NCBI GenBank assembly: GCA_044892505.1
Contig: CM097883.1
Span: 314,588,001-314,652,000, forward strand
DNA: 64,000 nt
Direction of reading: 5' to 3'
From: Schmidtea nova
Lineage: Eukaryota
Under the pieces are notes generated by a model. It was given only the letters and a program-made list of their open reading frames with translations. It did not search any database and had not been told where the DNA came from. Positions 7,601 to 53,830 of this stretch are shown here, in pieces. How positions within the stretch are numbered: position 1 is the stretch's first letter; every line of letters begins with the position of its first letter. Both the position numbers and the translations under genes were made by a program.

Positions 7601-8222
7601 TCTGCGAATGGGGGATACTTTGATTCATGTTTCTTTTTCCTTGTTCTTCATCTTCTGTCGTTTTTCCCATTACCGCCGTAATTCTCATGTCATTCATTGC
7701 CATATGCAATTCGAATAGGTTGGCTGCTTCCAACGCTTCATCTACTGTTTTACATCCTTTGCATCCCACTTGTGCTCTGATGTCAGGTCTCCTGAGACCT
7801 CGTACGAATAACGCTGTCATCAATTCTTCGTCTACTGGGCTTCCTCTATTGAATGCCAGTTTCGCCAACTTTCTTAATTCGCTTGCGTACACCGCATTTG
7901 ACTCGTTTCTCCTTTGTTTTCTTGCTGAGAACTCATCGAACGCTTCGTTCAACACTTTATTTATCCCAAACGTCTGTTGGAAGAACTCCTTGATTGCTTC
8001 CCACGTTCTGGGTGGATTACTTCCCGATCTCTTCTCAATATACAGATCCAATGCGCTATCTTTCAAGTATAGCGGGATTCGATTCGCTAACGTTTCTGCA
8101 CTCCATCCGCATATATCCACGAATATGCCAAATTCTTTCAGGAACGTGTCCAATCTACTGGCGTCTCCATTAAATGGTTCGCCCTTGAATTTTTCTCTTA
8201 GATCCTCTCTGTGATCACTCAT
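4485..8222 (-). CDS. gag: Polyprotein part 1: Gag capsid, 3 CCHC zinc knuckles, coiled coil and accessory domains
   Basis: 1245 aa ORF with retrotransposon gag motifs (FNGD...FLKEF, W...K..F...F, FVRGL) and three CX2CX4HX4C at 7353-7505. The frame stays open upstream to 8705 except for one TGA at 8586-8588. Confidence 0.95.
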   Translation of the reverse strand: MSDHREDLREKFKGEPFNGDASRLDTFLKEFGIFVDICGWSAETLANRIPLYLKDSALDLYIEKRSGSNPPRTWEAIKEFFQQTFGINKVLNEAFDEFSARKQRRNESNAVYASELRKLAKLAFNRGSPVDEELMTALFVRGLRRPDIRAQVGCKGCKTVDEALEAANLFELHMAMNDMRITAVMGKTTEDEEQGKRNMNQSIPHSQRLFKEPPARKNNGYITVNTNGGNSYNDRQNRQCQTCGKNGHWQQDCFQNVACKLCGQKGHSENRCYGKTCYTCGKTGHMSKDCNQQRSWANSGNRPNYGNRPSYGNQGQQRNNPNSSANEASMKEAKLRQEVSRLHEIIESMAKGSQQAAQPKINMIQLIEAEAERENRESQQKHNQEWARVRREEEQVRQQRLQQLKKGNPRINMMRAMMEEKQQDESNELEVKEKRNEEQKQEEANQEVETAEQNKKDEEVRKETKTEKETEKETNQEEEVRIKQRGMLVIMPNDHVWRFKYDVKEEVGRLFNKVNEMIPGVTKLPREAFLQTEDLPEVKLKMTDTWEDMGVTETKINVMIIREVEPEKIPPPVKHQTRISRIFKGKIRRRRLEEIDELGKRMGKAEITGNENELTQEVSKKEARPTAHIGMLRHPRQELSDEEDDSEVSSLAGDMLKEPENEDKKMEVVETIETLSVTEDEIQKLMDNALEVIHNEEFIDTKRYRKFIRAVWQMKYKEWLQEREVRVIQEFIERLLKEPLNEYIIQIWINECSPRIWIRNPMTDGIYRWVEDRLGSSYKDKFIYSENGLVRKGTHMIDTGIWPGEITTLSICNTKKEENLQGIVKEANTCYEMRIKPQLVEAKERILAENLNTMIEQIIQQIKKHRKELTKSEYENLKQCIENIRDTSQTRHSNFKTDKLIAKMGKEMFKRGEVSDLKITVRLPNEETKQIEVIPDSKVGEIVEVINETILQREREDEFEDDIAIKYKEHLLNERDERRAYKIGIWDNYQTIHVIRMDDVQRATPRDEERKKKRREDVMRKLRQIVEIYRNWQMKPEWETILGELDLNRRRLTPVEKQWDNKEKCWKVKRGVYEEDPEGEDRYERNTKRICMVTRRLLPTDLDGPETAAIWAELEKQKTSELIELLRGNTRGKRQTIKGLAQFIITNGEDITNLRKVAKAIAEYKRVNEWCPEQLDDVIKKWRNKESAEETPQKIHLRIMYPNQRKEEFWVMLTEKVKSVKEKLMYELPFHLQHQGRSLDNNFEI
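5232..5471 (-). other. Ubiquitin-like domain 1
   Basis: KITVRLPNEETKQIEVIPDSKVGEIVEVI...IAIKYKEHLLNERDERRAYKIGIWDNYQTIHV follows the ubiquitin-fold pattern. Confidence 0.55.
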
Positions 8223-9097: not shown

Positions 9098-9476
9098 CCT
9101 GCTGGGTTTTCCAGTCAGCGCTTTTAATCTCACCTTTTATCTCGAACTCTGTTTCTCTCAACTTCACTCATTATCCCATTAGCCTGCTGGGTTTTCCAGT
9201 CAGCGCTTTTAATCTCACCTTTTACTTCTGCTTCATTATTCTCGACCTCAATTGTCGTTTCATTAGCCTGCTGGGTTTTCCAGTCAGCGCTCTTATTATC
9301 CACCCTTTATCTCTTCACTGTCGACTTTTACCTGTTCTTTGCTCCGATGATCATCACTTTTGACCTGCTGGGTCTTCCAGTCAGCGTCCTCAATTTCACT
9401 ACTTTATTATTACTCACTTTTATTCTCTCGATCTTTCCTGATCGTTATCATTGACCTGCTGGGTTTTCCAGTCAGC
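9098..9476. repeat. Five 22 bp hairpin-forming repeats (CCTGCTGGGTTTTCCAGTCAGC) with 62-75 bp spacers
   Basis: Copies start at 9098, 9183, 9267, 9364 and 9455. Confidence 0.9.
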
Positions 9477-9803
9477 ACCCTTCACTTACTCACTTTACTT
9501 TGCTACTCCTCCTTGTATGCATACTTTAACATCATTAGGCCACATAATCAGCTTTACTCGCATTTATCAATACCCCGGTGCGCACCTTCAACTCTCTCAT
9601 TATTAATTCGGTTTCTTTCAACCCTTATTCCTCATTATTCGCTATTCATTTTCACTATTCATCATTTATCCTCATTATCATTTATTCATCTCCATTATCG
9701 CTTGTTGATCTTCACTATCCGGATAGTTTTATACGTAATTTTGTCCTCATCTGCCTCACTTCGTCGTCTTTCTCGTGGGCTTTTACTCAATATTTTATTT
9801 CGA

Positions 9804-10445
9804 ACGAGAACTATGCTCACTGCTGAGAACTATGCTCACTAACGAGAACTATGCTCACTGACGAGAACTATGCTCAATGACGAGAACTATGCTTACTGAC
9901 GAGAACTATGCTCACTAACGAGAACTATGCTCACTGACGAGAACTATGCTCAATGACGAGAACTATGCTCAATGACGAGAACTATGCTCACTAACGAGAA
10001 CTATGCTCACTGACGAGAACTATGCTCAATGACGAGAACTATGCTCACTAACGAGAACTATGCTCACTGACGAGAACTATGCTCACTGGCAAAACATGGT
10101 TGTTATGAGGGTTTTGCTTACTGATGGAAACTCTTTGCTCCGGGGATTATGTTCCCCGATGAGAACTATGCTCACTGATGGTGACTACAGGAATTATGCT
10201 TCCTGATGAGAACTACGCTCACTACGATGACTATGTTTATTGATGAGAACTACGCTCACTGATGAGGACTATGTTCGCTGTTAGAACTTACGTTTATTGA
10301 TGAGAACTCTGCTCACTACAAGATTTATATTTACGGACGAGAACTATGCTCACTATGGTGTTGTGTTTTATGACGAGACCTACGCTCACTAGGATGTTAT
10401 GTTTTATGACGAGACCTATGCTCACTATGAGACCTATGCTCACGA
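9804..10445. repeat. 19 bp tandem array (ACGAGAACTATGCTCACTG), degenerating rightwards
   Basis: About 15 near-perfect units to ~10090, then degenerate copies. Confidence 0.95.
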
Positions 10446-11142: not shown

Positions 11143-11601
11143 TTACAAGTACACTGTTATTTTCTCGGATACAGGTAGGTTGCACATAGGACATCGTTCA
11201 TTTATTTTACAGTCATTACAGAATCGAAAATGCCCACACGGCAACAACATTATCTGTATTTTGTTTATTTCACAGATGTAACACGTCAGATATTGTCTCG
11301 TATGTTCTGTTGTTATTCTTATCCACTCATCGTGTTTTGTTGCAATCTGTTGTTCTAGCCTGTGGCACTCGATATTCATCTCAGGGTTGTTTAATCGCTC
11401 TCTATACCACTGATATCGTGTTGCTGTATCCACTGTTATCTTATTCTCGCTTATGCTCATCATCATTTCGGCTCTTTCTGTGTTGTTTGTCGGTTCGTGG
11501 TATCCTCCTACCTCGAGTCGTTTTAACTTTCTCGTTATGGTCTCCACTGTTTCGTTGTTTGTCTCGAAAAACGTTTGCATTTCTTTTATTTTGTTCTCCA
11601 T
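11143..11601 (-). CDS. Coiled-coil + C-terminal RING-HC protein (IAP-type RING), putative E3 ligase
   Basis: CYICEINKIQIMLLPCGHFRFCNDCKINERCPMCNLPVSEKITVYL: C3HC4 with the LLPCGH signature at the extreme C-terminus. Confidence 0.85.
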   Translation of the reverse strand: MENKIKEMQTFFETNNETVETITRKLKRLEVGGYHEPTNNTERAEMMMSISENKITVDTATRYQWYRERLNNPEMNIECHRLEQQIATKHDEWIRITTEHTRQYLTCYICEINKIQIMLLPCGHFRFCNDCKINERCPMCNLPVSEKITVYL

Positions 11602-12135
11602 CCCCTGAATGAATTACCATTTATTTCTGTCGATTTTTATTTATTATTCCTTATTCTTATTCTATGGTAGTCCTACTGTTCGCTTTCTGTTGTTCTGTTT
11701 TGCGTCACTGCGTGTATATCCCCCCGTGTTCTTGAATGTCGCCCCGACATGATCATTGTTAGTTGCTCACACTCATACCATTTTCATACGCGCTTTTCAG
11801 CATACTTTTACCTTACGTCATGCATACTTTTCATCACTTTTCATACTGTTATTCCACATACTATTCCTCATACTTCATTCATCCCCATACTTACATTCCA
11901 TTGTCATTCATTCTTTCATTCTCATGTATACTTTTATCATGCTCATCACTCTCATTATTTTACACCCATACTTTATTTATTATTTTTCAACCCGATTCAT
12001 TCTTGCTTCAGGACCCTTAAACCCTCTGTTATCGTTTACTTTACTTTTCGTCGCTAATTTCGATTCCATCCCGGTTCATGCGCTCTAAACTTTCCGCAGA
12101 TATCGAATTCACTTTTTCCCACAAAGATCGATTTA

Positions 12136-12153
12136 ATCCCGGCTGAGCCCCCA
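12136..12153 (-). promoter_or_regulatory. Primer binding site complementary to tRNA-Pro
   Basis: TGGGGGCTCAGCCGGGAT is 16/18 identical to the MLV PBS-Pro TGGGGGCTCGTCCGGGAT and lies directly after the LTR end AATT. Confidence 0.88.
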
Positions 12154-12313
12154 AATTTATGCTGGTGTGTTGGTTGGATTGACAACTGAGATCCTTATGA
12201 TTTTATACGTTAGGGTGATCTCGCCAACATAAAAACATTCCCCCCGCTGACACCCATGATGTATCCCTAACTACTCATCATGTTGGTGCTGTGTCAACGT
12301 TGTGAAATGACAA

Positions 12314-12382
12314 GGCAGGTGAGCAACCTTTCGGCTACTATTCCCTTGTTTATTCACGGGTCCACCACTACCGATAGAAGGT
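12314..12382 (-). ncRNA. Conserved structured RNA motif with GNRA hairpin (copy 1)
   Basis: CCTTCTATCGGTAG...GGACCCGT...TAG-TAGCC GAAA GGTTG-CTCACCTGCC; covarying relatives at 42278, 46364 and 52281. Confidence 0.55.
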
Positions 12383-12545
12383 GTCTGTGGCTTTCTTTCG
12401 GTCCCACTTATGCTCTTTTCTATTGTCCTAGGGTGATTCAATTTTATTACATCTGCGGCTTTAAATGAATCCGGGTTTTAGTTATATTCAATTCTCAGTC
12501 ATTCCACAAACAAACAAGACAAGTCAAATCATTCGTTTTATACAT

Positions 12546-13166
12546 TTATTTATAGTTCAACAATACAGAGGGTCGTATTACATTTAGTAGTTCTTGCTCG
12601 GATAGACCACTGAGCAAGTCTACTTCGATTCCAAGGCGATCTGCATACGCGCGTCTCTCCCTACGCTTTTTCGCTCCCAAGCGCTTCCGTCTCTTTGTTC
12701 GTTTCGAGCCTTCCAGAATGATTGGGGATGTTGGGGTAGTTGTGATTGGGATGGTTTCTATCTCCGTTTGGGTACTTGTTGTCATCGATATTGTGTCCAC
12801 CCACCTATTAAAGGTGCTAGTCCTGATCACTGGGCGTAATTGCTCGGTGATAAACTCCTTGGTTGATGCCCTCAAGTAATTCGACAGCTCCATCTTTAGG
12901 GCTGCTACCTCCCTAGCTTGCTCGTCGATTGTTCGCTCCGCTCTGTATCGGGCTTGCAGGATAGTTTTAACCCTCTCTGGGTTGAACCACGTGGCTTTAA
13001 TTCGCTGGTGCTCTTCGTTTAGTTGACGCAAGCGGTTTTCTAGGACTCGCGATCGTGCTTTATGCTCTTTGGCCTCTTGTTTGTAGTCCCTAGTCGGATG
13101 TTCACTCATCTCTGTAAAATGTACAATTAATCGGGTTATGTATGGTTTGTCTGTTCTCTCAGTCAC
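12546..13166 (-). CDS. LTR-encoded accessory protein B (coiled coil, Arg-rich motif, Leu-rich C-terminus)
   Basis: Intact ORF with homologs at 42580-43167 and 45815-46153; AATAAA overlaps the stop. Confidence 0.75.
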   Translation of the reverse strand: MTERTDKPYITRLIVHFTEMSEHPTRDYKQEAKEHKARSRVLENRLRQLNEEHQRIKATWFNPERVKTILQARYRAERTIDEQAREVAALKMELSNYLRASTKEFITEQLRPVIRTSTFNRWVDTISMTTSTQTEIETIPITTTPTSPIILEGSKRTKRRKRLGAKKRRERRAYADRLGIEVDLLSGLSEQELLNVIRPSVLLNYK

Positions 13167-13300
13167 TATCTTTATTATTAAACCGGTGTTTCACTCTCAG
13201 ATCACTTCATGCATTCAAAGACATAACAAAACCCAAAAATTAATACATTTATTTTTAATACACCTCTCATCTTTCTTCGAATGATCGATTTCCTTGCGAT

Positions 13301-13936
13301 TTAGATGAAGGTTCGTAATTCCTGGTCGGCCGTGTTCTCGTCACGACGGATTCCACTTTCGTAGTAGAACTCCGGGGCGGGGCTCCAACTTAACTTGTCC
13401 CGAAAGATGAATACCTCCCAGAGACGAAGGTCTTTGGGCTCGGGTTGTTGGTCCAACGAAACGCTTCCCGGCGCGTTTGAGTAGGCGAAGACTTCCCCAG
13501 TGTCGCCACACCGAGGCCTGTCTAGCAGCAGGTAACCGAGTTGATGTAGCTCTTTTCCGGACATCATTCCAGTACTTAGTAGCCAGCGGGGCTGCTGTGC
13601 TTCATCCACGAATTGGTAGAACCATCGGGGATTCTCCGGTTTGCTATGATCCGAGGAGGGTACCCAATCAGTATCTCCTTCCCACCGCAACTGTAGTCCA
13701 AACGCGCAAGCTGGGGTGCTAGCGGCTGAGCTCATGTGAGCCCTCATCCATCGTCGTAGGTGGCGACGTGATACTTCTGCGACCTTTCGAGGTGCTTCGT
13801 TCTCTCCTCTGATGTTTATGATCGTATTGGGTCGGATGACGGAGCGGGTGCGCCGTTTCTTACGAAGGATGGTGTCCTCTATCTTTATCGGGTGCGCGGT
13901 CATCGGCTTCTCTTGGAAATTCTCTAGTTTCACCAT
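13301..13936 (-). CDS. LTR-encoded accessory protein A (unknown family)
   Basis: Intact 211 aa ORF with homologs at 34627-35229 and 43252-43761. A TATAAATA lies ~60 nt upstream and an AATAAA downstream. Confidence 0.75.
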   Translation of the reverse strand: MVKLENFQEKPMTAHPIKIEDTILRKKRRTRSVIRPNTIINIRGENEAPRKVAEVSRRHLRRWMRAHMSSAASTPACAFGLQLRWEGDTDWVPSSDHSKPENPRWFYQFVDEAQQPRWLLSTGMMSGKELHQLGYLLLDRPRCGDTGEVFAYSNAPGSVSLDQQPEPKDLRLWEVFIFRDKLSWSPAPEFYYESGIRRDENTADQELRTFI

Positions 13937-14871
13937 AGTATTTCTAAAGAAGATGGTTGTTTGTTAACTATGGATTCTATGGTATAACGGGCCTATTTAT
14001 ATTAGTCAACCCACCCGTTATACTTAATTTTCAACACTCATGTTCAACCACTCAGCTTTAACAGTTTTTATTTATCGATAATACTATTTAATCACATTCA
14101 ATCTCATCAGTCGTTTTCAATTACTTCCTCATCTAACCAGCAATGATCATACCATGTCGGGTAATTCTCGTAAGTACCTGTGATCCGTACACGCTGGGGT
14201 TCATCATTTTATCAGTTCTCAATGCCTGTGATTTATTTATCATCTCTCTTGGCGATTAAACGCGTCTGACAGAGGTTATCGATTACCCTTAACCCTTGAT
14301 ACTAGGTTCACTATTCCCGAACTCGTAAGCGCTAATGTTGACATATACCTACCCTCGTCGTCACCTAATTCATCGGCACTAATATTATTCACTACACGTC
14401 TATCCCTCGTCTAGACTTCACCGCGATATATGTCCTTCCTATAAAACGGGTTTCACTTTGCGCTCGTTTACGACTACTAGTTTATACTCGATACCCTATC
14501 ATCGTGATGTATAACGTTTACATTAGATCATCTCTACCTTGATTTCGTTCATGATCATTAGGTCTTACTCGATACCCTATGTGCATTTAACCCCTTCCGC
14601 TTTCCAAATATTTAATACACCTATGGTCCCGCCGCATCAGCACCTCACAACCGAAAGATTGTGTTGCGCTGAGAGGCCCCAAGAATCCGTCAGGCTGTTA
14701 GGCCTCCGGAAAACCTTATGGATTTTAATATGGTTATAAACAATTATGAGGGTTTAAATACATCAATAACATAACTCCAAATTACCTTTTATTTTCGCTT
14801 CGAAATCGGTATTACAACGTTTTCAGTAAGTCACAAGAGCTTACACTTGGTAAAAAATGACATATTCAAAT

Positions 14872-14922
14872 ACTGATTTTACTTCAGTATTTATACTGAA
14901 CCGGTGTTGTTGGTTAGCCAAT
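14872..14922 (-). promoter_or_regulatory. CCAAT + TATA (TATAAATA 14895-14888) + TCAGT initiator-like promoter
   Basis: The same CAGTATAAATAC and CCAAT spacing occur at 44698-44732. Related TATA boxes are at 33068-33075 (+) and 53161-53168 (-). Confidence 0.6.
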
Positions 14923-15684
14923 CAGCATCGAGTATGTGTGTTTGATCATTATTCTGTGTTGCCGGCTTTTTGCTGCCTAACTTAACTCGCCGATTTGTTT
15001 GGTTAATCATGCGGTAAGTTTATTTTTTGTACGATTTAATTTTTATTTGATTTTGCTTTAGGTCTTCGGTGACATCCGCCCACGCGCTGTCATATTCCAA
15101 TTTTTTCTGCTTCGCATGAGTGAGTTTTGAAGATTTTTGTTGTTTTGATTAATATGTTATTTCTTTTAGATGTTGCCGCCTATTTTGTTACGCTTTGGTG
15201 TTGGTAATTTATTTTGTTGTTATTCTGTATTTAATTTATTTTATTGATTGTACATTATTTTCAGATGCTGCTCGATTTGGCTGGCCCAACAGAAGCAAAG
15301 ATTGCTGAAAGAAAATTCAAGCCAATTTTATTTATACTGAAGCTTTATCAAAGTTTATATAGTTTTCTAACTTACAATCTCCCTCGTCGACGGCTGCTAA
15401 ATTGTAAAGAAGCTAAAAAAGAAAAACTTTTCAAGTAACCTTTCGTGGTTTTTTATTATTTTGTTATTAATAAATATTAGTAATTTAAAATAGTGCTGTT
15501 TATTTTATTGTATCTTATATACTTTTATATTTGATTGTTATTATATCATATCAGTAACCGCACTACACAGCACACACCCCGAGTGTCGACACATTGCTAA
15601 CGTCTGACTCTCTCGGGATCTACAACTCTTCTACACATCCACCCAATCAACAAATTAAAAACTCAAATTAGAACAGCTCAAACA

Positions 15685-15687
<3 letters not shown>

Positions 15688-15726
<39 letters not shown>
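15688..15726. repeat. (TA)n microsatellite at the element 1 boundary
   Basis: Direct reading. Confidence 0.95.
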
Positions 15727-15729
<3 letters not shown>

Positions 15730-16217
15730 AGGAGAACTAAAAGCAAATTGGATTTTATTAATAGAAATTGATCGCTAATTGATAAGTCGGTTTTTTGCAA
15801 CCGGAAATCTTGACCGATGATAACAAGAGTTGAAATGAGCAAGCTCCATGACAGACCGTATTGATTGATTTCTGGTGCTGGCGAATAATCCTTTAATCGA
15901 GATTGATTGTGATCCAATGTATTGATTTGTAGATTTTTTGAGTTAGTCATTTCAGATTTGTCTGGATAGTATATTAATATTGATCCAGTTGATGACAAGC
16001 ATCTTCCAGTTTGTACAGCTTCTTTACGCATTCCAGCAGCGAAACATTTCTGCAATCTACGGAACTGGCAATTGTTTCTTCTTTGAATATCGCCTACATA
16101 ATCTCCACTAGAGTAGAACTGATAATTGTTGTCATTTGATGAAAATGAGTCACTGTGAATGTCTTGGGTGAATGGGTATTTTACTCCATTTAATAATTAA
16201 TTAATTTATAAAATTGA

Positions 16218-22344: not shown

Positions 22345-22538
22345 TATTGGTTGGTTGTTGATCGTCAATATGACCTTGACGTTACTATGGCTCTCCTCAA
22401 CAACTCAACATACAAAACATTAGATTAACCATCTTGTTGCCCGTCACAATGTAACGTTGGTAATGCAACAAATGGGTGGGTATTCGCAATCAGTGAGCGT
22501 CGAAAATTTGAAACTATGATTGACCGAATATCTCCTGG
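22345..22538 (-). repeat. Dispersed ~300 bp repeat family R (left part; continues at 25253-25350)
   Basis: Aligns with 51815-52075 and, inverted, with 47535-47780. Confidence 0.85.
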
Positions 22539-25252
22539 TAGTGTTTCTTCTCGAGAATTCTTTCTCGAGAAATTCTCGAGAAAATCGATAAAGTTATTAA
22601 GTAGCAATTCTCGAGAAATTTAGATATTTCTCGAGAAATATGTAACAAATATAATTAAGTGTATTATTTGAATAAAACTTTGTTATTTTGTGTAATTTTG
22701 AAAGTTTTAATAATTTACCGTTCTGTTTCGTTTTCTTATTCATCAGTGTCATACAACTTTTTTACAACACCGTTAGTTTTCTATTTTCTTATTCATCATT
22801 CTCTCATCCTCATATCTCAGTTGTTGTACCATACTTAATAATTCGGGGAATTCCCGATAGTATATTTGAATAATAAATAAATTATCAGTTGAGCAATTAC
22901 TATATAACTAATTTCATTGTGAAATAACAACTTGAAGTCATAAGTCTTGTTTTAGCGAAGTAATAATTAGAGTTTTGTATGTAAAAATATTTTTAATTAA
23001 AAAAAGGAAACCATATAACTATATAATAAATTTAATGTAAGTAGTTGTTTTATTATAAATACTGTTTTTAAAATAAGTCTAATTAAAAAAATAGAAACCA
23101 TTTACGCAGAAAATGAGTAAAATTTACCGGGACTGTTGGGAACATTTTAAAAAAAGTGAAAGTAATAAAGATTTGGCAATATGTAAAATATGTCTTAAAC
23201 CACTTTCATGCAAAGGTTCGGCGACTATTGGTCTGCGTAGGCATCTTGAAGGTTTACATGAGTATAAAAGAGAAGAAGAAAACAATTATGGTCAGAGTAC
23301 CTCAAAAAATGCAAAAAAATACAGGTATGGAGACAATCCAATTGAATCTTTCTTGAAACGACCAACTATTGGTGAATTAGTTTCAAAGTTAGCAGCTGTT
23401 GATGGAATATCGTTTCACAGAATTTCTAAAAGTGAATTTATTAGAACATCTATGAGTGGCAAAGGATTTAATTTACCACAGAACTCGACCAAAGTGATGC
23501 AATTAATGCTGAACTTTTATGAAGAAGTAAAACAACAGCTAATAAAAAAAATAATTAAACACAAAGATAATGGTAAGAAATTCAGTATATCCATTGATGA
23601 ATGAACAAGCATGAAAAATAAAAGATATATGGATATACCTTTATTATAATAACAAAGATTCAGACAATTTGGGGATGGTTCCTGTTGTTGGTAGTTGATC
23701 TGCAGAAAAAGCATTGGAATTAGTGAAAGAAAAATAAATCGTTTAATATCATATTTAATGACAACGTCGTAGCTACGATGAGTGATGGTGCTGCTGTGAT
23801 GCAGAAATTTGGACGATTATCTTCTCAATTTCACCAACTTTGCTACAATCACGGGTTGCATTTGGCTGTTCTGAAAGTATTTTTTGTCAAGAAGGGCTAT
23901 CCTGATAACTTTGCTTGTATCGAGGAATCTGATAACGAATCTGAAATAGAATATTTAGAAAATGAAAATAATAACTGACGACTCCGATATAGAAGTTGTG
24001 GAAGACGTTGATGTTTATTTGCAACCCCAAATCGAAAAAGCAATTAAATTCATAAGAAAAATATCAAAAATGTTTAAAATCTCCCCCGTTAAAAATGCTA
24101 TATTACAAAAATATGTAATGGAAGAGGAAAAAAAGAGCTAATGGTAATTTTAGACTGTTGGAACGATGGAACACGATGGAGGCTATGGTAGAAAGATTTG
24201 TACGAATTAGTGGCTCAATCAAAAAAGCATTATTGATTGAATTAAATTTGGGTAGTTTGTGGAATATTAGCAACATTAGCAACATTAGCAACATTAGCAA
24301 CATTAGCAATATTAGCAACATTAAAACCACTCCGTATTACAATTGAAAATCTTAGCCGAGAAGATTCTACATTATTAACTGCTGAAGGAGCTTTCAGGTT
24401 TTTATTTACAACTTTGGAAAAATTAAATACTAATTTAAGTCGAGATCTCCTTAATGCAGTTAGGGAGGAAATGTCTAAAAGGAGGGATTATACTTTAGTA
24501 TCGGTTATTAGGCTCCTACAGAATCCTGATTGTATGTCACATAAAGAAAATGATAGTTTCTTTGACATGGCACCAAAAAAAGAGATATATAAATTGGCTA
24601 AATCTATATCATCTAGAATTTTTGAAATTACAAACAGTGATAACAATAATACCGAAGAAATTGGTGACACTGAAAATGTTGAAGAATATCCAGATCGAGA
24701 AGAAGAGGTAAGTCTACAACAACAAATAAATTTTGCAATTACAAAAAGTTTACAAGAGTATGAAAGTCCGAATGCTAACAAATTTCAATCATTAGATGAG
24801 GAATTTAAAATATTTGAAGCAAATGGGAAGAGAACCTCAAATTTGCAGAATCTTTTGGATGCACTTCTCACCATTAAATCAACTTCTACGCAAAATGAGC
24901 GGAATTTTTCTATTGCAACAGATTTTGTTACCAAAAAAGAACCAGAATGGGAGATTCAACTTTGGACGCTCTGTGTTTCTTAAAACATTATTTTAAATCA
25001 CAAAAATGATTTAATTTATTATATTTTTATAAAATCTTTTATGTATTTTTGTAAAACTTTAAGAAATTATTTTTACGTTATTATTTTTTATTTTGTTGTA
25101 TAATAAAAATGTGAATTTCAGTTTATATTATACTGCATTAGATTTTTATTTTAATAAAATATTTTCTCGAGAAATCTCGAGAGATCTCGAGAAAAAAAAT
25201 ATGTGTTTTCTTTTCTCTAGAAATTAAAAAGGGTGAGAAATGAGGAACACTA
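22539..25252 (+). mobile_element. Decayed hAT element with BED zinc finger transposase
   Basis: TIRs TAGTGTTYC, subterminal TCTCGAGA clusters, BED finger (CKIC...LRRHLEGLH), DE*TS, MSDGA, CYNHGLHL, RWN, ERNFS. Multiple stops and frameshifts; 9 bp ATTAGCAAC expansion at 24266-24323. Confidence 0.9.
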
Positions 25253-25641
25253 CTAATGGGTCCAAGGGATACCGATAGAAGGTTTATTGCTCATTTTGTC
25301 CCTTCTTCAACGATTTATCTATAAGCATTCAACAAAACTTTATCGGCAATTCAACATAAATATTCTACCTAACTATAACTTTATTATTGCATCCAAATAA
25401 ATCATTCTGAGCATCAAAACACTAACCAAACATTAAATTTTGCTAATAGTATAATTTATGTTAATACTTATATAATTTATTAAAAAAATTAATCTACATT
25501 TAAAATAAAATAAAAATAAAAAACTTTAATGTTTAATTTACCAACAATAATTTTATTCTTATTTTACATTCATATTAATTTTCTCGGTTTAAATTACCGA
25601 TTACCAAAATTACATTTGTTTTAAATTGGTATTTTAATTAA

Positions 25642-38237: not shown

Positions 38238-41200
38238 CAGCCCTGGATTTACGAATAGGCACACTAGGCACCTGCCTAGGGCGGCAAATTTAGAGGGCGG
38301 CAAATTTAGAGGTCGGCAAAAAATTAGTATGTAACCGATAAGAAAAATTCAAATTTTCAAAAAATTAATTTTTCGTTTCTCTAGAATTGAATATGTAAAA
38401 ATTAATGTACAGAAAAAGTTTATATAATGTCATATTCATCGTTTTGTATGTATATGTATATAAAAATGTTTATGTTTAAATGAATACAACACCATATCAA
38501 ATTGAAAAAATAAATTCAAATTCAAATATTTTTTGTTCTAGTAGGCATAGACATTGGTATATTTGTTTTGTTATTGACAATTATTGACAATTATTGACAA
38601 CTTATTGTAGATACATAAGAAAAACATAATTTTATGCGTTTGTGTCCACTTGTGCCATTCATAAGTTGTTATTGGAGTCAAGCAGTCAAGAAATTCTTTT
38701 TGTTTGTAATTTATTAAGAAAGGCTACTGTTTTTTATTGCTGATTAATCTTAGTTTTCTCGCGGTTATATTTGCGTAAGTTTGCTTTCTCTGTTCAAATA
38801 TAAGTTTTCAAATTCATTTTGAAATTTTTTTTTAATCTTATTTAATTAAAATAAAGTTTTTATTCAGCTATTGAAATGAGTGACGGAAGGAAGAGATTAA
38901 GTGGTGCGAAGTATCGTCAGGAGGCCAAAGAGAAATTGGCAAAACAAAGAAAAATTATTGAACAATCTACGAAAATACAGTCGTACTTTAACATATGCTC
39001 AAGCTCAGGTGCTAATGGTAAAAATATTTCAGATCTAAATTTAATAGAAAATGTACCATCTTTGTCCACAGAAAATACCATTATTTTACCAGTTTCATCC
39101 ACAGAAAATACCGTTATTTCACCAGCTTTGTCCCCACAAAACATTAGTTCCAATTCTAGTTTAAATAAAACAACTGATGGTACTGAAATTGCCACAAACA
39201 TTGAAAATACGAACATCAGTACCATGATATCTATAAGTAATGATCCTGGTAATTGGAATATTGACGAATCCTTGATTGATTTTGTTGTAAAGTTTGGTTT
39301 CAAATCCAATAAGAATGTAGATTTCAGTACATCGAAAAAACTATTTGGTGACAAATATCGTTGTTTGAACGTGCAGAATTTTTCGAAAAAATTAAAAAAT
39401 GGAGAAACTCATGAAAGAGATTATTTATCGTATTCAGAGTCTGATAAGGCTCTATATCGTATTCCTTGTTATTTATTTAAAGATAATAGTTCTTTTTCTA
39501 AAAAGGGTGGATGCTCAGATTGGAAAAATATTTCACAATTATTAGAATCCCACGAAAATTCTTCTACACATCGCCGTTGTGCTATGATCATGATTGAAAG
39601 AAGTAACATGAGTGTAAGTGTGGAAACATTTTTGCTCAAAAATTTTAAAAACGAATTAGATTATTGGAAAAAGGTTTTAAATAGAGTTGTCTTTGTCATA
39701 AAGAAGCTATGTAGCCGAGGATTACCTCTCGAGGACACAGTGAAAAATTTTATGGCAATCACAATGGAAATTTTATGATGTCACTAGAAATGATTGCAGA
39801 ATATGATTCATTTTTGAAAGAGCACATACTAAAGTATGGAAACTGTGGTTCTGGAAAAACTTCATACATGTCAAAAAAAATATGTGATGAATTTATTAAT
39901 ATAATTGGAATAGAAGTGAGAAACAAAATAATCAGTGATATAAAAAAAGCAAATTATTTCTCTATAATTGTTGATTCGACACCCGATATTTCTCACACTG
40001 ACCAATTATCATTGATAATTCGATATGTTGATATTGCTAACGGCAAAACAGTGGAACGATTTTTAAATTTTTTCGACAATGTTGATCATAAAGCGGACGA
40101 AATGTTTGAAGTAATATTGAAGTTTTTGGATAAATTCAAATTAAATTTGGCAGATTGCAGGGGACAATCATATGATAATGCAAATAATATGTCCGGAATC
40201 TACAACGGCTTAAACGCTAAAATTTTAGGAATAAATTCACGTGCTATTTTTGTCCCATGTGCTTGCCATTCTATAAATTTAGTTGGTCAATGTGCTGCTG
40301 AGTGTTGCACAGAAGCTGTGCATTTTTTCATACTAATTCAAAAAATTTATAAATTCTTTAGTGTGTCAACAAAGCGGTGGGCTCTATTGAAAGCAAAATT
40401 AGGGCCAACCGAAAAACTACCGAAGTCCTTATCTGACACTCGTTGGTCAGCTAGATCAGATGCCTGCACAGCCTTGTTTCAAAATTATAAAGAGATAATT
40501 GATTTACTTAAAGAAATTGAAAGTGACAATTTGGAAAAAGTATTGACTCGTACTGAAGCTGGCGGATTATTAAGAAAAATGGAAAAAATGGAAATGGCAC
40601 TGCTCCTTACTATTTGGCAAACTATTTTAGAACGTTTTGATAGTGTAAATAAAAAATTACAAACCGCTAATACGAACCTGCTTACTGTTGTTCAGCTATA
40701 CGATTCGTTATTAGACTACTTTTTGGAAATGAAGCAAAAATTTTTTAGATTTCAAGAAAAAGCTTTGACAATTTCGGTTAGCTCTAGTTATGAACAGAAA
40801 AGAAATAGAAAAAGGAAAATGCATTTTGATGAATCCGAAGATGATGAGATTATAACAGATAGTCCAAATGAATTATTTAAAAAGAATGTATTTGATAAAA
40901 TTATATCAGTTTTGATAAAAGAATTACAAAAGCGTAAAAATTCATACAATTTTTTGAATGAAAAGTTTGGATATCTCGAAAATATATGTTCTATTGATAC
41001 CCATGTTATTATAAAAAAACAAAAGATCTGTACGAATTTTATGAAAGGGATTTGGACTGTAACGAACTAATGGAAGAAATTCTTCATTTTAAACAGCTTT
41101 TACAGAAAAGTGATTTATCCGACTCTGAAAGAAGTATCGCAAACCAGTTCAATTTTTTATTTAAAAAAAAATATAATAACGTGTTTCGAAATTTGGAAAT

Positions 41201-41527
41201 CATCTTCAGAATTTATCTGTCACTAGCAGTAACAAATTGTTCTGCTGAAAGATCGTTTTCTTGTTTAAAAAGAATAAAAACTTATCTTCGTTCACAAATG
41301 AAAGAAACCAAATTAAATGCCGTTTCAATTATGCACATCGAACACGACGTTTTAGAGAAAATTGAGTTTGAAGACATAATTAATAAATTTGTAAATCAAA
41401 AAATTAGAAAGAAAATATAAATAAATTTAACTCTTTAAATAATACAATGTGCTTTTTATTTCAATTCAAATTACACTAAAATTCATATAAAGTGCCTAGG
41501 GGCGGCAGATTCTTAAATCCGCCGCTG
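38238..41527 (+). mobile_element. Full-length hAT element (Tip100/ZMYM1-like transposase group)
   Basis: Imperfect TIRs CAGCCCTGGATTTA / CAGCGGCGGATTTA and a perfect 8 bp TSD CCCATCAC (38230-38237, 41528-41535). Confidence 0.95.
38876..41420 (+). pseudogene. hAT transposase split by two 1 nt frameshifts
   Basis: TTF-type zinc finger, GLPL(RGH), DSTPD, GQSYDNANNM, CACHSINL, TRWS, SAERSFS and dimerization domain; shifts near 39730 and 41015. Confidence 0.93.
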
Positions 41528-42277
41528 CCCATCACTAAATTACTTATTTCGCCCAACAATCCATTCAACATACAATCACATACAATCACCACAATAAAAA
41601 TTCATCACAAATCTATGATAACACAAACACACACAAACTTGCAATCACTCCATTTCACTCATTACTACACTCACCATAAATCCATGCAAAATCAGCTCAT
41701 CCAACAATCAACATCCATAGCAAACGCCCTACACAACAAATTCATTCCACTATAATTTCACATAACTTCGCTTGTCTCACTCAACAACACTATCTTCATA
41801 CTCAATCCCTCCACTTACTCACATCATCCATGCAGCATGGTGCATCTAGGAAATGTAATTCAAAAAGTTATTTAATTATAAACTCAAGCAAGCCAATTAT
41901 TTACCAATAACATTCTATACATCAGCCTAATCAGCCTATAGACAAATTATTACGGTTTATAAAACTCCCGTAAAACCCATTCGTCAACATCTCATACCCA
42001 TAACTAACCTTATGGTGAACCCTGTCCATGAAAAGTTCCTTTCGTAAATCCTCTTAATTCCGAAATGTAAATAAATAAATATTATAAATTTTATATATAA
42101 ATTTTATTCTTTATTTATGCTGCGTTCATGGAGGGGTTAGATAAAAATATTCTAACGATGACTAGGGATCCCTCATCCATGATCATGCATAAATATGCGT
42201 AACTTTACACTCGAGCGCCCTTGATTATTTCCCTTGATAACCAAGTTGGTGATGCGCAGGGTGGTTAAACAATGATG

Positions 42278-42347
42278 GGCAGGTGAGCACTATTACTAGG
42301 ACTACTCACCATTTATGTTTACGGGTTCATTGCTGCCGTTGGAAGGA
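42278..42347 (-). ncRNA. GNRA-hairpin structured motif (copy 2)
   Basis: GGCAG...GAACCCGT...GGTGAG TAG TCCTA GTAA TAGTG CTCACCTGCC. Confidence 0.55.
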
Positions 42348-46363: not shown

Positions 46364-46433
46364 ACCTTCTATCGGTCAGAACGAACCCGTAGGGGCAATA
46401 GGAGAATAGTTATTGCGAAATAGTTCACCTGCC
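46364..46433 (+). ncRNA. GNRA-hairpin structured motif (copy 3)
   Basis: ACCTTCTATCGGT...GAACCCGT...GAA TAG TTATT GCGA AATAG TTCACCTGCC. Confidence 0.55.
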
Positions 46434-47534
46434 CTATTGACCTACACCGGCCAGTACACTACCAATGTGACTTGCAATTAGGAGCAAATCACGGGTACTA
46501 GCGCAGGGTTATAGCTTTTTATACTGGAAGGGTAAGTAAACCTCACGTTGAACATCAACCAACACACCAACAATATAAAATAGCGTACTATAGTATAAAG
46601 CAACCAATTAATTTGCAAGTTATATTTAGATAGGCGAAAAGCGTAAAATCTTTTATAGATATAATATTCTATATTGAATTTTAGTAGTTCTTTAATTTTA
46701 TATAAAAGGGGGGCGCCGAAGTTTATTTTGTCTAAACTAAATTAATTTAAAATGCTAATGCATTTTTGTGCATCTTTTATAGCCTAAGGGGTGAATTTAA
46801 AGTTCCAAAGCGAATAAAATCTTCAAACGCTAACCGTTGCCTTTGCTAAAGCCTCGGCAAGAATTTAAAACCTTAGAAAATTTTTAATTTTTAATTTTAA
46901 TTTTAATTTAATTTAACTTTTAACATGGTTTCATTGCTTTTTTTCCAAAGAGACTCATATTCAAATAACAATTTCCCGAATTAAAAAATAATAAATTTAA
47001 AATTTCATAAATAATGGAAGCAAACGCCACACAGTCTCAGTGTCTTCAGGAATCGATTATCGCCGGCCAGATAATATATTCTAACGTCAATAAACGTTCG
47101 GAGTTGGGTGGCTACGAAATGTTTAAGGATAAACTTTCTAGACATGAAGGCGTGAAAACATTCATGTTTCCTTTTGGAACTAATTTTGTTTTTCTCTAGG
47201 GATCAATGTTTCATCGGTCACGATTGAGGGTAACATTCGTTTTAGACGCTACTGATCGTTTCCAATCATCATCCTATCTGACTGAGAGTAGGTGAAATAA
47301 AAAAGGAAAAAGTCTTTCGATATCCGAAAATTTTTGACACTTTTGGGACAAATTATTTTAATAATTTTGCTTTGTTTATTGTTGTTTTATGAATATTTAA
47401 AATTAGTTCTTGAAAGAAATCAAGGATTATTGATGTGTTGATGCTTAAGAATGATCTAGTCTGATAAAAGTTAATTTGTCTTGATGTGATTATTTATCTG
47501 AAATATCGATTGAAAGTCTTATTGAATATTTATA

Positions 47535-48349: not shown

Positions 48350-49472
48350 ATGCGTGGCAATATTGATGAACGTGGAAAAAAACTTTTCATAGGTGGACTT
48401 CACTTGAAAACCACCGAAGAAAGTCTAAAAGGATTTTATTCTCAATGGGGAGAAATAGTCGATGTCGTAGTAATGAGAGATCCTCAAACAGGCAAATCAC
48501 GTGGATTTGGATTCGTCACCTATTCCGATTCGTCATCAGTTGATGATGCTCAAAGCAATCGGCCCCATGAAGTAGATGGCATAAAAGTCGACTCAAAACG
48601 AGCAATGCCTAAAGAAGACACATCACCAGAATTCCATGCAACTGTTAACCGATTATTTGTCGGTAGACTCAAGCGAAATGTTGTTGCCGATGATTTGAGA
48701 CAATATTTCGGTGAATATGGGACTATTGCTGATGCAGTTATAATAAACAATTCTAATGGCGAATCACGGGGTTTTGGATTTGTTACTTTTGATGACACCG
48801 ACTCAGTTGATAAGATAATTGTCACTCGACCCCATCAATTGGATGGAAATCCCATAGAAGTTAAGAAAGCTCTACCGAGAGATGATAATAGTAGTAGTAA
48901 TAAATCTAACAGACAACAATCGAATCCAGGTAAAACTTTAATTTTTCATTTTTAAGAAATGAGATTTGATTAATCAAGTTATAATAGGAAATAGATCCAC
49001 ACCACGAGGAGGCTATAGCAATAGTGTTGCTTCAAATAACCGTTACTCACAAGACGACTATAGTTCTTCATACGGTAGCTATCCTACTGCTGCTAATAGT
49101 AGTAGCAGCACCTATAACAATAGGAACTATGGAACTACTACTGGTAGTGGTGGTTTTAATCAAGGATACTCACAAAACTATAGTAGCAGCAATAAGTTTA
49201 GCAACAACAATAGTAGATTAAGTGACAGTTTCGAAAATAACGAACTCAGTTATAGTCAACCAACATACGCTAATGAAACTAGTTACAACAGTTACGGACA
49301 ATATGATACACCTAACCCCCCTTCGAGTCGATATGGTTATCCTCCATACAATAGTATTGGTGGTGGTGGTATGGGTGGTGAGTATAATCAAAGACAAGGC
49401 GGTGGTCCAATGAGGGGAGCGCCAAGACCCAGTAGGGGTGGCGCTGGTGGATATGGAAATTATCCTTATTAA
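48350..49472 (+). CDS. hnRNP A/B-family RNA-binding protein (2 RRMs + low-complexity tail), 2 coding exons
   Basis: RNP2/RNP1 LFIGGL/RGFGFVTY and LFVGRL/RGFGFVTF. Phase-1 GT-AG intron 48930-48987 (58 nt); spliced product 354 aa; AATAAA at 49571. Confidence 0.93.
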
Positions 49473-51814: not shown

Positions 51815-52075
51815 GCTGCTGGTGGGTCGTTGATCGTGAATATGACCTTGACGTTGCTATGGGTCACATCAACAACTCAACATATAAAACATTAGATTAA
51901 CCATTTTGTTATCCGTCACATTGTAACGTTGGTAATGCAACTAATGGGTGGGTAATCGCAATCAGTGAGCGTCGAGAATTCGAAGCTATGATTGACCGAA
52001 TATCTCCTGGGTCCAAGGGCTACCGATAGAAGGTTTAATGCCCATTTTTGTCCCTTCTTCAACGATTTATCAATA
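51815..52075 (-). repeat. Repeat family R copy, uninterrupted (empty site for the 22539 hAT)
   Basis: TATCTCCTGG|GTCCAAGG is contiguous here and split at 22538/25253. Confidence 0.85.
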
Positions 52076-52094: not shown

Positions 52095-53830
52095 AAAATA
52101 AATGCTGGGTTTATGGGTGGTTTTAAATAATTAATAATAATTAAACAAATAATCATAAATAAGTATACTAGGGATGCCTCACCCATAACCATACATAACA
52201 ACAAATCGTCTCACTCGCACACCCCTACCTATTCCCTATCTAGTTAGGTTGGAACTGCGCGCGGTGGTTGAAAAATGATGGGCAGGTGAGCTCCATCGCT
52301 GGAACTACTCCCCATTTATTTTCACGGGTTCCCGCTGCCGCTAGAAGGTCTTACGCGTTATTCTCTCAATGTCTACGTTCAACTTCCTTAAAATATTAAC
52401 AAACGTCTTTTAAATAGAGATTTGATTAAGCTACCAACTCTTTACGCTATATAAAACACAAAGTAATGCGCTGCACCTTAAAATTATATTTATTTATAAA
52501 AACTCTCGAAAATCTCCTTTACTCAAAATCACCGCTATGTCGTTGCATCGCTATGCGTAAAAAATCTATTGATCAAGTTCGTCTTGCTAACATTTTAATT
52601 CTGAAATTTAATCGCTGCATAAGATGTAAAATTCCTGTAAAACTCCAAAATTATCGCTGAAAAATGCGCAAACCTCAAAGCCTATCGTTCAACACTCAAA
52701 AGTCCTATCACTATATGAAACCCTCAAAATCTATCGCAATTACAAAAAAAAAATTCTCTATGTGTAACGATTCATTATGTGCAACCTCAAAAATATCCGA
52801 AAAATCCCAGAATACATAATTTATAAAAAGGTACAACCGCCGTGTGAAGCTACGAGGCTCCACGACGACGACTATGTCTCCCTCACCGCGTTAGCAGCAT
52901 AGGAAGCATATCTATATAACAATTTTATATAATGACTACAATAATACTCATCATCGAATATTTATTTTTGGAAAAATTAGCCTCAAAACTTTACTATGAC
53001 CACTACATAACAAATTACCCAACACATCTCACACAAAAATACTCAAATTACACAAAAATACCCGTTCGAAATCGATCCACACGACTGGCGAAATCAAAAC
53101 CAAATTTTTGCTCTCAGTAAATTAATGCCAAGTAAGTTTAGATTGTGATTTTTCAGCATCTATTTATACTAATTTTACTGACGCTTAGATATTTTGTTAT
53201 TTACATAATTTATTAACAATTTAAACTTACTTATTAGTTTTAATAAGTGAGCATTTATTTATCTTTCATAAATTTAACTTTATAATTTGATTTATTTATT
53301 TCGAAAATATTTGTTTTTAATTCTATTAAATTAGGTGTGTATCTATTGTTTTATTGTGCATTTATTGATTAAAACAATTTAATTTTAAATCTATTTTCAT
53401 TCCTATCTCTGTTAATTTTTGCGATATTTCAATGGGGATTTATTCTATAATTTTTAATAAATTATTTTCTTTATTCTGATACCGATTCATAACTTTTTCA
53501 TAATCACTTTACAAGCACCGATCTTCCCCATTCAATTCTCATGCGGCCCTTCGTGTGTAAATCCGACCTGCACTCAAATTGTGTGCTCTCCTATGAGATG
53601 CCTCTTTTTATCGCTTCAACCTTATCTCGACAGACTTATAAGATGCAGTTCGTATGACTACTATTGTACTTAACTGTTTTTATTTTCCCTTGCGTTATTT
53701 TACTGCTTAACGTCTTGTCGTTCGTTTCTCTTTGTTTCTCTTTGTATGTATTTATTTTTTAATAAATTTTAATAAAATTTTATTTTTGATTTCACCAGCC
53801 CAACAACACTCCGGGGCCCGTTTAAATTGC
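52095..53830 (-). mobile_element. Short LTR relative lacking ORFs A and B
   Basis: TATA at 53161-53168, structured island at 52837-52907, GNRA motif at 52281-52349; boundaries approximate. Confidence 0.6.
52281..52349 (-). ncRNA. GNRA-hairpin structured motif (copy 4)
   Basis: GGCAG...GAACCCGT...GGGGAG TAG TTCCA GCGA TGGAG CTCACCTGCC. Confidence 0.55.

Follow-up and report, generated by a model that had tools for sequence, protein, structure and literature searches.

A conserved block with covarying stems and a predicted four-domain RNA fold at the 3' end of Burro-type gypsy LTRs in Schmidtea nova

A giant gypsy element and its LTR

The window, meaning the whole stretch of DNA that was analysed, comprises 64,000 nt of Schmidtea nova (GCA_044892505.1, CM097883.1:314,588,001-314,652,000), and the genome searched with motifs from it measures 1.25 Gb. 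The window holds the 5' LTR of a Burro-type gypsy element of 29.1 kb which is bordered at both flanks by a 4-bp target duplication (CTTC), and whose partner LTR lies upstream of the window and is 99.87% identical to the one described here. The LTR and the two signals that frame the following account are:

12160..15291, minus strand: 5' LTR of the Burro-type gypsy element, 3,132 bp, TGTTGG...CCAGCA
12136..12153, minus strand: primer binding site (PBS) for tRNA-Pro(UGG)
12545..12550, minus strand: candidate poly(A) signal AATAAA at the stop of an LTR ORF, followed by a GU-rich stretch

A 122-bp flanking repeat adjoins the start of the LTR (up to 15412) and lies outside it. According to Pfam, the domains of the element follow one another in the order gag-CCHC, fusion glycoprotein, protease, RT, RNase H, integrase, ankyrin and then TRAF/MATH. 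Burro/GYPSM1 are giant gypsy-like LTR elements of dugesiid planarians. They share with the present element a total length near 29 kb, a polyprotein of some 5,000 residues in which an env-like fusion protein separates the CCHC gag from the protease and RT, RNase H, integrase and ankyrin repeats follow, and accessory ORFs of the MATH/TRAF, BIR and RING types (PMC6431247). The section concerned treats the proteins and describes no RNA structure of the LTR (PMC6431247). The assignment to the Burro type is based on the giant size, the TG...CA LTRs, the target duplication and the PBS together with the env-like domain between gag and protease, the RT-RNase H-integrase order, the ankyrin repeats and the MATH/TRAF accessory ORF, while none of the named Burro-1 to -4 sequences is found among the 120 RT-RNase H matches listed, which name no planarian element and of which the best reaches 54% identity.

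The LTR itself contains two ORFs of 220 and 214 aa (12546-13963, minus strand) which lack a Pfam match and are uninterrupted in the partner LTR as well; the second has its stop at AATAAA. Between the PBS and gag lie a RING-finger ORF (11143-11613, minus strand) and two sets of leader repeats. The first set (9098-9475) consists of five copies of a 21-nt hairpin-like unit, starting on the plus strand at 9098, 9183, 9267, 9364 and 9455, and its sense strand includes a stretch resembling the LTR end of the B families (AAACCCAGCA); these units are possible packaging hairpins or decoy ends. The second (9747-10365) is a tandem array of a 19-nt unit with CTGAYGAG, half of a hammerhead core, in each unit and no match in Rfam. 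A piece of a nuclear-receptor-type C4 zinc finger (15678-16196, minus strand) is located about 400 bp from the 5' end of the element.

Copies and families of the conserved block

The first-pass annotation had described a hairpin with a GNRA loop near the 3' end of this LTR. This hairpin is one domain of a block of 214-269 nt, measured in five elements from the start of its first hairpin (hairpin 1) to the last base of the LTR, which ends Burro-type gypsy LTRs directly before the tRNA-Pro(UGG) PBS. The RNA element is thus about three times longer than first described, and its placement was right since the block ends the LTR that runs from 15291 to 12160. The LTRs of the five measured elements range from 0.76 to 4.2 kb. 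The window contains further copies of the block, several of which belong to a repeat (R) that is itself the LTR of another family:

42118..42346, minus strand: second whole-block copy, at the LTR 3' end of another family
46365..46572, plus strand: third whole-block copy, ending at an LTR-type CCAACA
52103..52348, minus strand: fourth block copy, 3' end of a solo LTR (53807 to 52103) within an R-type LTR
51820..52033, minus strand: intact repeat R with all domains, a non-GNRA cap and a short domain 3 loop
47573..47779, plus strand: decayed whole copy of repeat R
22348..25282, minus strand: copy of repeat R split after ACCC by an insertion (22539-25256)

The four hairpins on which the first description was based (12314, 42278 and 52281 on the minus strand, 46364 on the plus strand) were found where it had placed them, with their five-pair stems and their GAAA, GTAA, GCGA and GCGA loops, and the G(G/A)ACCC block that they were said to share is likewise present. 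The shared 5' hairpin, given as CC-TTCTATC-GG, holds as CC-N7-GG only, as the loop TTCTATC occurs in two of the four copies and the others have TTCCAAC and TTCTAGC. Repeat R had been credited with the 5' part alone, which proved mistaken because intact R copies carry all domains; the copy at 25258 seems partial because the insertion at 22539-25256 divides it. This insertion, which interrupts an R-type LTR, has short inverted ends and an ORF with a BED zinc finger. Three further features of the window are a stretch with DUF4371 and hAT dimerisation domains (38855-41420), a broken gag of a related element (55745-58215, minus strand) that is 74% like 7735-8197, and an intronless reading frame with two RRMs (48350-49472, plus strand), presumably of the hnRNP A1 or Musashi type, which decays after about 200 codons and is probably a retrocopy.

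The pattern CCTTCYANYGG-N5-9-RRACCC, which spans hairpin 1 and the conserved block behind it, has six matches in the window compared to none in 100 shuffles, and 16,887 matches in the genome compared to none for the reversed pattern. R-type LTRs make up a large share of the genome matches listed. A downstream pattern that ignores the 5' part gave 6,269 genome matches and none in its control. Among 30 loci collected with this downstream pattern, the 5' hairpin is present within one mismatch in 22 and an exact GAACCC or GGACCC in 21. A total of 186 copies was gathered, of which 163 could be parsed, and these form 50 clusters at 85% identity. Within the family of the window's element the block is 98-99% identical compared to 75-84% for the sequence upstream, a comparison that is biased by the loci having been collected via this region. 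Outside the genome the motif pattern matched 8 metagenome contigs and 22 viral contigs, none of which shows domains 2-4 when inspected by eye; ARAGORN on nine and Rfam on 20 of these metagenome and viral matches returned nothing, and they are treated as chance.

Four complete young elements, whose LTR pairs are 99.8-100% identical, retain the block and have no match to RT, RNase H or integrase, either in a search where the positive control matched or in Pfam. Retention of the block in elements without RT is as expected of a signal that is required in cis. One of these elements encodes a 4,113-aa ORF with gag, fusion protein, protease and ankyrin, two have kept gag only, and the R-type one has kept protease, ankyrin, TRAF/MATH and BIR-RING. 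In the window, Rfam reports nothing at the gathering score, and the matches seen at 11900-12800 and in ten diverse loci are weak and unrelated. A depth peak at 12166-12513 was not used as transcript evidence because more copies pass the 90% filter there, and a loose end recovered from four contig sets turned out to be a tagmentation adapter, with no usable ends or splice joints in these sets.

Covariation and the predicted fold

The block is predicted to fold into four domains that are preceded by a loosely conserved anchor, all on the minus strand of the window:

12400..12405, minus strand: upstream GGGACC/RGACC, loosely conserved, complementary to the tRNA-Pro variable loop
12370..12382, minus strand: hairpin 1, CC/GG stem (2-4 bp) with a 7-nt loop UUCUAUC
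12357..12363, minus strand: RRACCC(G), predicted to be unpaired; complement of the T arm of tRNA-Pro at about nt 50-56
12302..12357, minus strand: domain 2, long stem X, conserved G.G/A.G mismatch, 1x3 loop and 7-bp GNRA hairpin
12340 and 12321-12319, minus strand: 1x3 loop of domain 2, U opposite CAC, C-loop-like
12339-12322, minus strand: GNRA hairpin of domain 2 with a conserved U.G pair, where the hairpin described first lies
12245..12299, minus strand: domain 3, stem Z, asymmetric ANNWCCAA opposite one G, stem W and apical loop
12282-12255, minus strand: stem W, with the UAGGG apical loop at 12271-12265
12160..12235, minus strand: domain 4, U-rich linker UUUAUG and a terminal stem able to pair with the LTR end
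12215-12209, minus strand: loop of the terminal stem with CCCUA(A/G), complementary both to the loop of domain 3 and to the D arm of the tRNA

Stems X, Z and W and the helix of the GNRA hairpin (H2) covary across families. In an alignment made with MAFFT by sequence alone (29 of 80 looser clusters, no R copy), a model of 34 pairs has 86.9% of its cells paired compared to 73.0% after shuffling, and 159 cells with a double change compared to 56, a number that none of 500 shuffles reached, while slid controls gave 32-39%; most of the model pairs derive from the RNAalifold consensus of the same alignment, so that this shuffle control favours the model. A second line of evidence comes from swapping strands between families. 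Among 40 clusters, a set that excludes eight of the R type and two with deletions, this singled out X, Z, W and H2 from 210 segment pairs, with cognate energies of -11.9 compared to -6.4 kcal/mol when swapped for X, -8.3 compared to -5.3 for Z, -2.8 compared to -1.0 for W and -0.9 compared to -0.2 for H2. The terminal stem and an upstream-linker helix come next, weakly. A tree-aware simulation on the anchored 40-cluster alignment placed model pairs at nine of the top 11 ranks among 8,778 column pairs, with one anchor having been chosen partly by pairing, which favours W and Z, and on the MAFFT alignment at six of the top ten. Against this tree-aware null the outcome is more modest, as only one of 37 model pairs in the anchored alignment and none of 34 in the MAFFT alignment reaches E<0.05.

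The first description also held that G-U pairs work only on the sense strand of the element, and for its own hairpin this is borne out, with G-U outnumbering A-C by 64 to 9. The same asymmetry is seen in W (18:6) and is absent in X (15:14) and Z (8:12), and is thus a property of two of the four helices. The sense strand folds lower than the antisense strand in 32 of the 50 clusters, and mean folding z-scores are modest at -1.09 for sense and -0.59 for antisense, with -1.64 and -2.20 in further runs. Taken at the level of prediction, the fold is very probably a selected RNA structure of the sense strand. The broader proposal of a cis-acting RNA is supported by the covariation, the strand asymmetry of these two helices and the retention in RT-less elements.

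Two parts of the structure as first drawn had to be replaced. The GGYAG/CTGCC closing stem has no double change in any of its five pairs, two of which are unpaired in 23 and 20 of 29 sequences and pair in 10 and 16 of the 40 clusters compared to 10.8 and 15.7 expected. In its place, the bases after CTCACCTG pair with the strand directly before TAG to form stem X. The TAG that had been drawn as an invariant bulge is not simply unpaired, as pairs are possible between its A and G and the C-U of CUCAC (39 and 33 of 40 clusters), which leaves one U opposite CAC; this pairing is invariant and hence without covariation. Three other candidate pairings were set aside. ACCC had been considered as a partner for the GGGU of domain 3 and was rejected since that U changes together with its stem Z partner, pairing of an upstream GUGAG/GUAAG with CUCAC falls outside the top 25 segment pairs, and an apparent P2 at the 25258 copy involves the end of the inserted transposon.

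Several small modules recur within the fold. The loop of hairpin 1 has U at position 1 and A at position 5 in all 30 loci collected without this motif, in which the hairpin was placed by best match, whereas positions 6 and 7 vary and one of them is deleted in three loci. A U and an A thus close a 5-nt loop on a Watson-Crick pair, followed by bulged 3' bases, and the predicted hairpin resembles a T-loop or UA-handle more closely than the L3 loop of HDV. It agrees with the T-loop/UA-handle as defined in the relevant parts of PMC2175325 and PMC3664808 in its U at 1, A at 5 and one or two 3' bases. The U-turn signature (g/u)NR of T-loops is absent since position 4 is a pyrimidine in 30 of 30 loci, and in this respect the module differs from a T-loop and would correspond to the UA-handle half only (PMC2175325). 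In domain 2, the capping loop is a GNRA tetraloop in 28 of the 50 clusters and CAC is found in 38 of 50, a count that is partly forced as the anchor allowed one mismatch. In the predicted fold, U lies opposite CAC and the long strand of this 1x3 loop begins with C and is placed within a hairpin, which is the outline of a C-loop. The putative loop is shaped like the C-loops of PSTVd and rRNA, the former of which binds VIRP1 (as far as the cited part of PMC9516175 describes them), and differs in that 12 of 40 clusters have A.C as the lower flanking pair.

Domain 3 often presents UAGGG in its apical loop. Its complement CCCUA in the loop of the terminal stem is exact in 29 of 40 clusters compared to only 17 for UAGGG, and this better conservation of CCCUA would fit the existence of another partner, for instance the D arm of the tRNA. 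The loop-loop pairing between the two is plausible on the present model; its core is nearly invariant, and the flanks covary to a modest degree, forming Watson-Crick pairs 11 times compared to 5.4 and 13 times compared to 9.2 (n=27, the 13 of 40 clusters without the anchor being left out). Pairing of the terminal stem with the LTR end is weakly supported (-7.15 kcal/mol compared to -6.46 swapped, sd 0.31). Finally, the linker between hairpin 1 and RRACCC measures 5-9 nt, a U-rich and then a GU-rich stretch follow domain 3 in 48 of 50 clusters, and the upstream GGGACC/RGACC anchor occurs in 29 of 50 with no enrichment found.

A possible role at the primer binding site

In 32 of 167 copies, which represent seven clusters including R, a tRNA-Pro PBS follows hairpin 1 at a distance of 225-277 nt, and all seven clusters with a visible PBS use tRNA-Pro, in a search that was limited to this PBS. 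The gene that matches the PBS is tRNA-Pro(UGG), with 1,027 pattern matches genome-wide. Genes for it lie in a 308-bp tandem array (G000:C1:459609706 onward), and a recurring variant carries the anticodon TAT on a Pro body. RRACCC is complementary to GGGUUC of the primer (linear tRNA positions 50-55) in 47 of the 50 clusters, where it should be kept in mind that most copies had been gathered with a pattern that includes RRACCC. The next base adds a seventh pair with the T arm in 39 of 50 clusters and is A in 11 of 50, including R; all seven pairs together are possible in 36 of 50. Both flanks of RRACCC vary, so that conservation falls away on each side. The block is located upstream of the PBS within the LTR and would belong to U5, as judged from the enrichment of AATAAA, which 24 of 50 clusters carry at 100-170 nt before hairpin 1, compared to 7-12 for its five permutations.

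How much weight the complementarity can bear depends on the null. Against dinucleotide-shuffled tRNA with the window left open, it is not significant for RRACCC (P of 0.16 and 0.05), and the values for CCCUAG (0.14 and 0.06) and for both jointly (0.13-0.33) are similar; with the T-arm window fixed to the published anti-PAS range of nt 48-55 (PMC3675109), P is 0.048 for 6-mers and 0.023 for 7-mers, the window having been fixed after the match was seen. The six-base match is not specific to the primer because tRNA-Lys of this genome has the same GGGUUC, control tRNAs being Lys and Arg only. Of the 49 clusters that have the CCCUAG anchor, 24 match the D arm. One of the complementarity counts used a tRNA copy with a mutated anticodon, which is identical in the T and D arms, and the statistics used the main copy.

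It is proposed that the block is a structured U5 leader which acts in cis in primer activation and packaging, a reading of the predicted fold that has about even prospects of being correct; that RRACCC specifically pairs with the T arm is a tentative part of it, judged somewhat less probable. As part of U5, the block would occur at the 5' end alone in mature RNA. Once the 3' end of the tRNA has annealed to the PBS, the T stem would be open, and the freed strand of the T arm could then pair with the unpaired RRACCC(G) in the manner of the HIV-1 primer activation signal (PAS), with the folding of domains 2-4 shortening the roughly 205 nt between RRACCC and the PBS. CCCUAG may either pair with the domain 3 loop or take the D arm of the tRNA as in Ty1, and the T-loop-like, C-loop-like and GNRA modules may pack the domains together or bind Gag or a host protein. 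The invariant CCAAC loop is unexplained by this primer-activation model.

Known systems offer partial parallels. In HIV-1 the anti-PAS corresponds to tRNA nt 48-55 (PMC3675109, in the section concerned), which the RRACCC site overlaps, being complementary to the 5' strand of the T arm of the primer. A PAS has also been predicted for HTLV-1, which uses the same tRNA-Pro(UGG) (PMC11251516), and the PAS/PBS segment of HIV-1 is treated further in PMC11181671; the PAS model of HIV has been challenged (PMC3185550). The HIV PAS comprises 8 nt that are masked in a stem, whereas the candidate signal here has 6-7 nt facing about nt 50-56, is predicted to be unpaired and, as part of a larger four-domain fold, would be separated from the PBS by about 205 nt. 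Ty1 and Ty3 are LTR retrotransposons whose RNA contains segments complementary to the T and D arms of the primer, and the structured 5' region of Ty1, with its pseudoknot, is needed for priming and packaging, as set out in the relevant portion of PMC4974528. In Ty1 these segments are located 3' of the PBS in the gag frame and in Ty3 they are split between the genome ends, in both cases with tRNA-iMet as primer, while in the present elements the segments precede the PBS, inside the LTR, and the primer is tRNA-Pro (PMC4974528). The Ty1 stretch which is complementary both to the D stem and to a genomic partner pairs with the genomic partner (PMC4974528), a precedent that was counted against contact between CCCUAG and the primer.

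A stronger form of interaction would be a T-box-like clamp, in which the RNA structure alone selects and loads the primer. Such a clamp might grip tRNA-Pro at the acceptor end through the PBS, at the T arm through RRACCC and at the D arm through CCCUAG, with the invariant CCAA loop pairing with U33-U34-G35-G36 of the anticodon loop and the T-loop hairpin and the UAGGG loop mimicking parts of a tRNA. Matches of CCAA to the anticodon are absent among the 6-bp matches, and this modelled variant is considered rather improbable.

Two functions outside reverse transcription were already suggested in the first-pass annotation, namely export and 3' processing, and both are ranked below a role at the PBS. 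Protein-binding elements typically consist of invariant loops on variable stems, a description that also fits a signal moving unspliced genomic RNA across the nuclear envelope or to assembly sites, either like a CTE or like the viroid C-loop, with the tRNA match being due to chance. RT-less elements would retain such a signal, the elements have several 3' accessory ORFs, and the U/CAC loop is shaped like the PSTVd C-loop that binds VIRP1 (PMC9516175). However, a block in U5 would be on every LTR transcript and the fixed spacing of 225-277 nt to the PBS is not required for transport, which makes this reading unlikely; known transport elements sit in introns or 3' regions, where they mark unspliced RNA. 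In the case of 3'-end formation, the fold would bring the upstream AATAAA to a distant cleavage site before UUUAUG and the GU-rich stretch, comparable to the R region of HTLV-1 which folds its AATAAA near a distant cleavage site, or would act as a terminator behind the poly(A) site. The U-rich and GU-rich stretches in 48 of 50 clusters and the enriched AATAAA about 270 nt from the latter are consistent with such a role. Yet the AATAAA of the window's element has a GU-rich stretch of its own 20-40 nt downstream, the 100 nt between AATAAA and hairpin 1 contain no sequence common across families, and the GU-rich strand is explicable, weakly, by pairing with the LTR end, so that 3' processing appears fairly improbable.

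Part of the conservation could alternatively stem from a splice donor on the antisense strand or from a promoter element acting at the DNA level, the stems then being secondary, since 19 of 50 clusters have CAGGTGAGC on the antisense strand and one has CAGGTAAGC. This is very unlikely because the exon-side bases change in R yet stay complementary within stem X, because four clusters have GTGAAC and three have GC for GT, and because the compensatory changes, the GNRA loops and the conserved U.G are all on the sense strand. An undescribed self-cleaving or catalytic RNA which trims the 5' leader or releases the polymerase behind the poly(A) site would account for a fold of several domains that is compact and rich in invariant unpaired bases, for the conserved U.G and G.G, for a possible loop-loop pairing and for the lack of any matching Rfam family. 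Cleavage inside U5 would, however, part R from the primer site and block first-strand transfer, and no known ribozyme consensus fits, all of which renders a new ribozyme highly improbable. Inspection by eye showed no fit to twister-sister, pistol, hatchet, twister, hammerhead, group II domain 5, K-turn or Pol III B-box.

An HDV-like ribozyme, to which the first-pass annotation had loosely compared the 5' hairpin, was tested as a fold in which CC-UUCUAUC-GG represents P3/L3 and the following GA or GG P1.1, and failed. Locally, a 3-bp hairpin, a 7-nt pyrimidine-rich loop and GR after 5-9 nt do recall the order P3-L3-P1'-P1.1 of the HDV-like ribozymes carried by R2 and further non-LTR elements, and in a few families a short helix could form upstream. 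Of the features described for these ribozymes (PMC3774820), the L3 G, P1, P2, P1.1 and the strand with the catalytic C are not kept. The L3 G, whose importance is stated in PMC3774820, is present in one of 50 clusters. P1 (~7 bp after P3) is possible in 5 of 50 compared to 6.7 when swapped, and within 700 nt in 9 of the 20 clusters with enough flank and linker compared to 11.9; P2 after C-N-A is possible in 18 of 50 compared to 15.8 swapped with a maximum of 23, and no cluster combines the L3 G with P1 and P2. P1.1 could form in most families and is broken in an amplified family, where the loop UCCUAAC is followed by GA (40 of 100 matches listed, compared to 3 with GG). The chance that the block is an HDV-like ribozyme is therefore close to nil.

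The proposed leader for primer activation and packaging would join a small group, since structured 5' leaders that control these steps have been mapped for a few retroviruses and yeast Ty1. The literature search found no structured-leader map for an animal gypsy element and no account of this structure, where the original Burro description might cover LTR features. The kind of element is known, and a structured element is expected at this position, which limits the surprise, whereas this fold and its modules appear to be undescribed. Many families supply covariation, with more than 16,000 copies of which 50 clusters were sampled. In practical terms, the motif is a marker for Burro-type LTRs including the solo and RT-less copies which are missed by protein searches, and the system of a 250-nt RNA and one tRNA is amenable to in vitro probing. 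If the contact with the T arm is true, it would extend the disputed primer activation model past retroviruses to a gypsy lineage.
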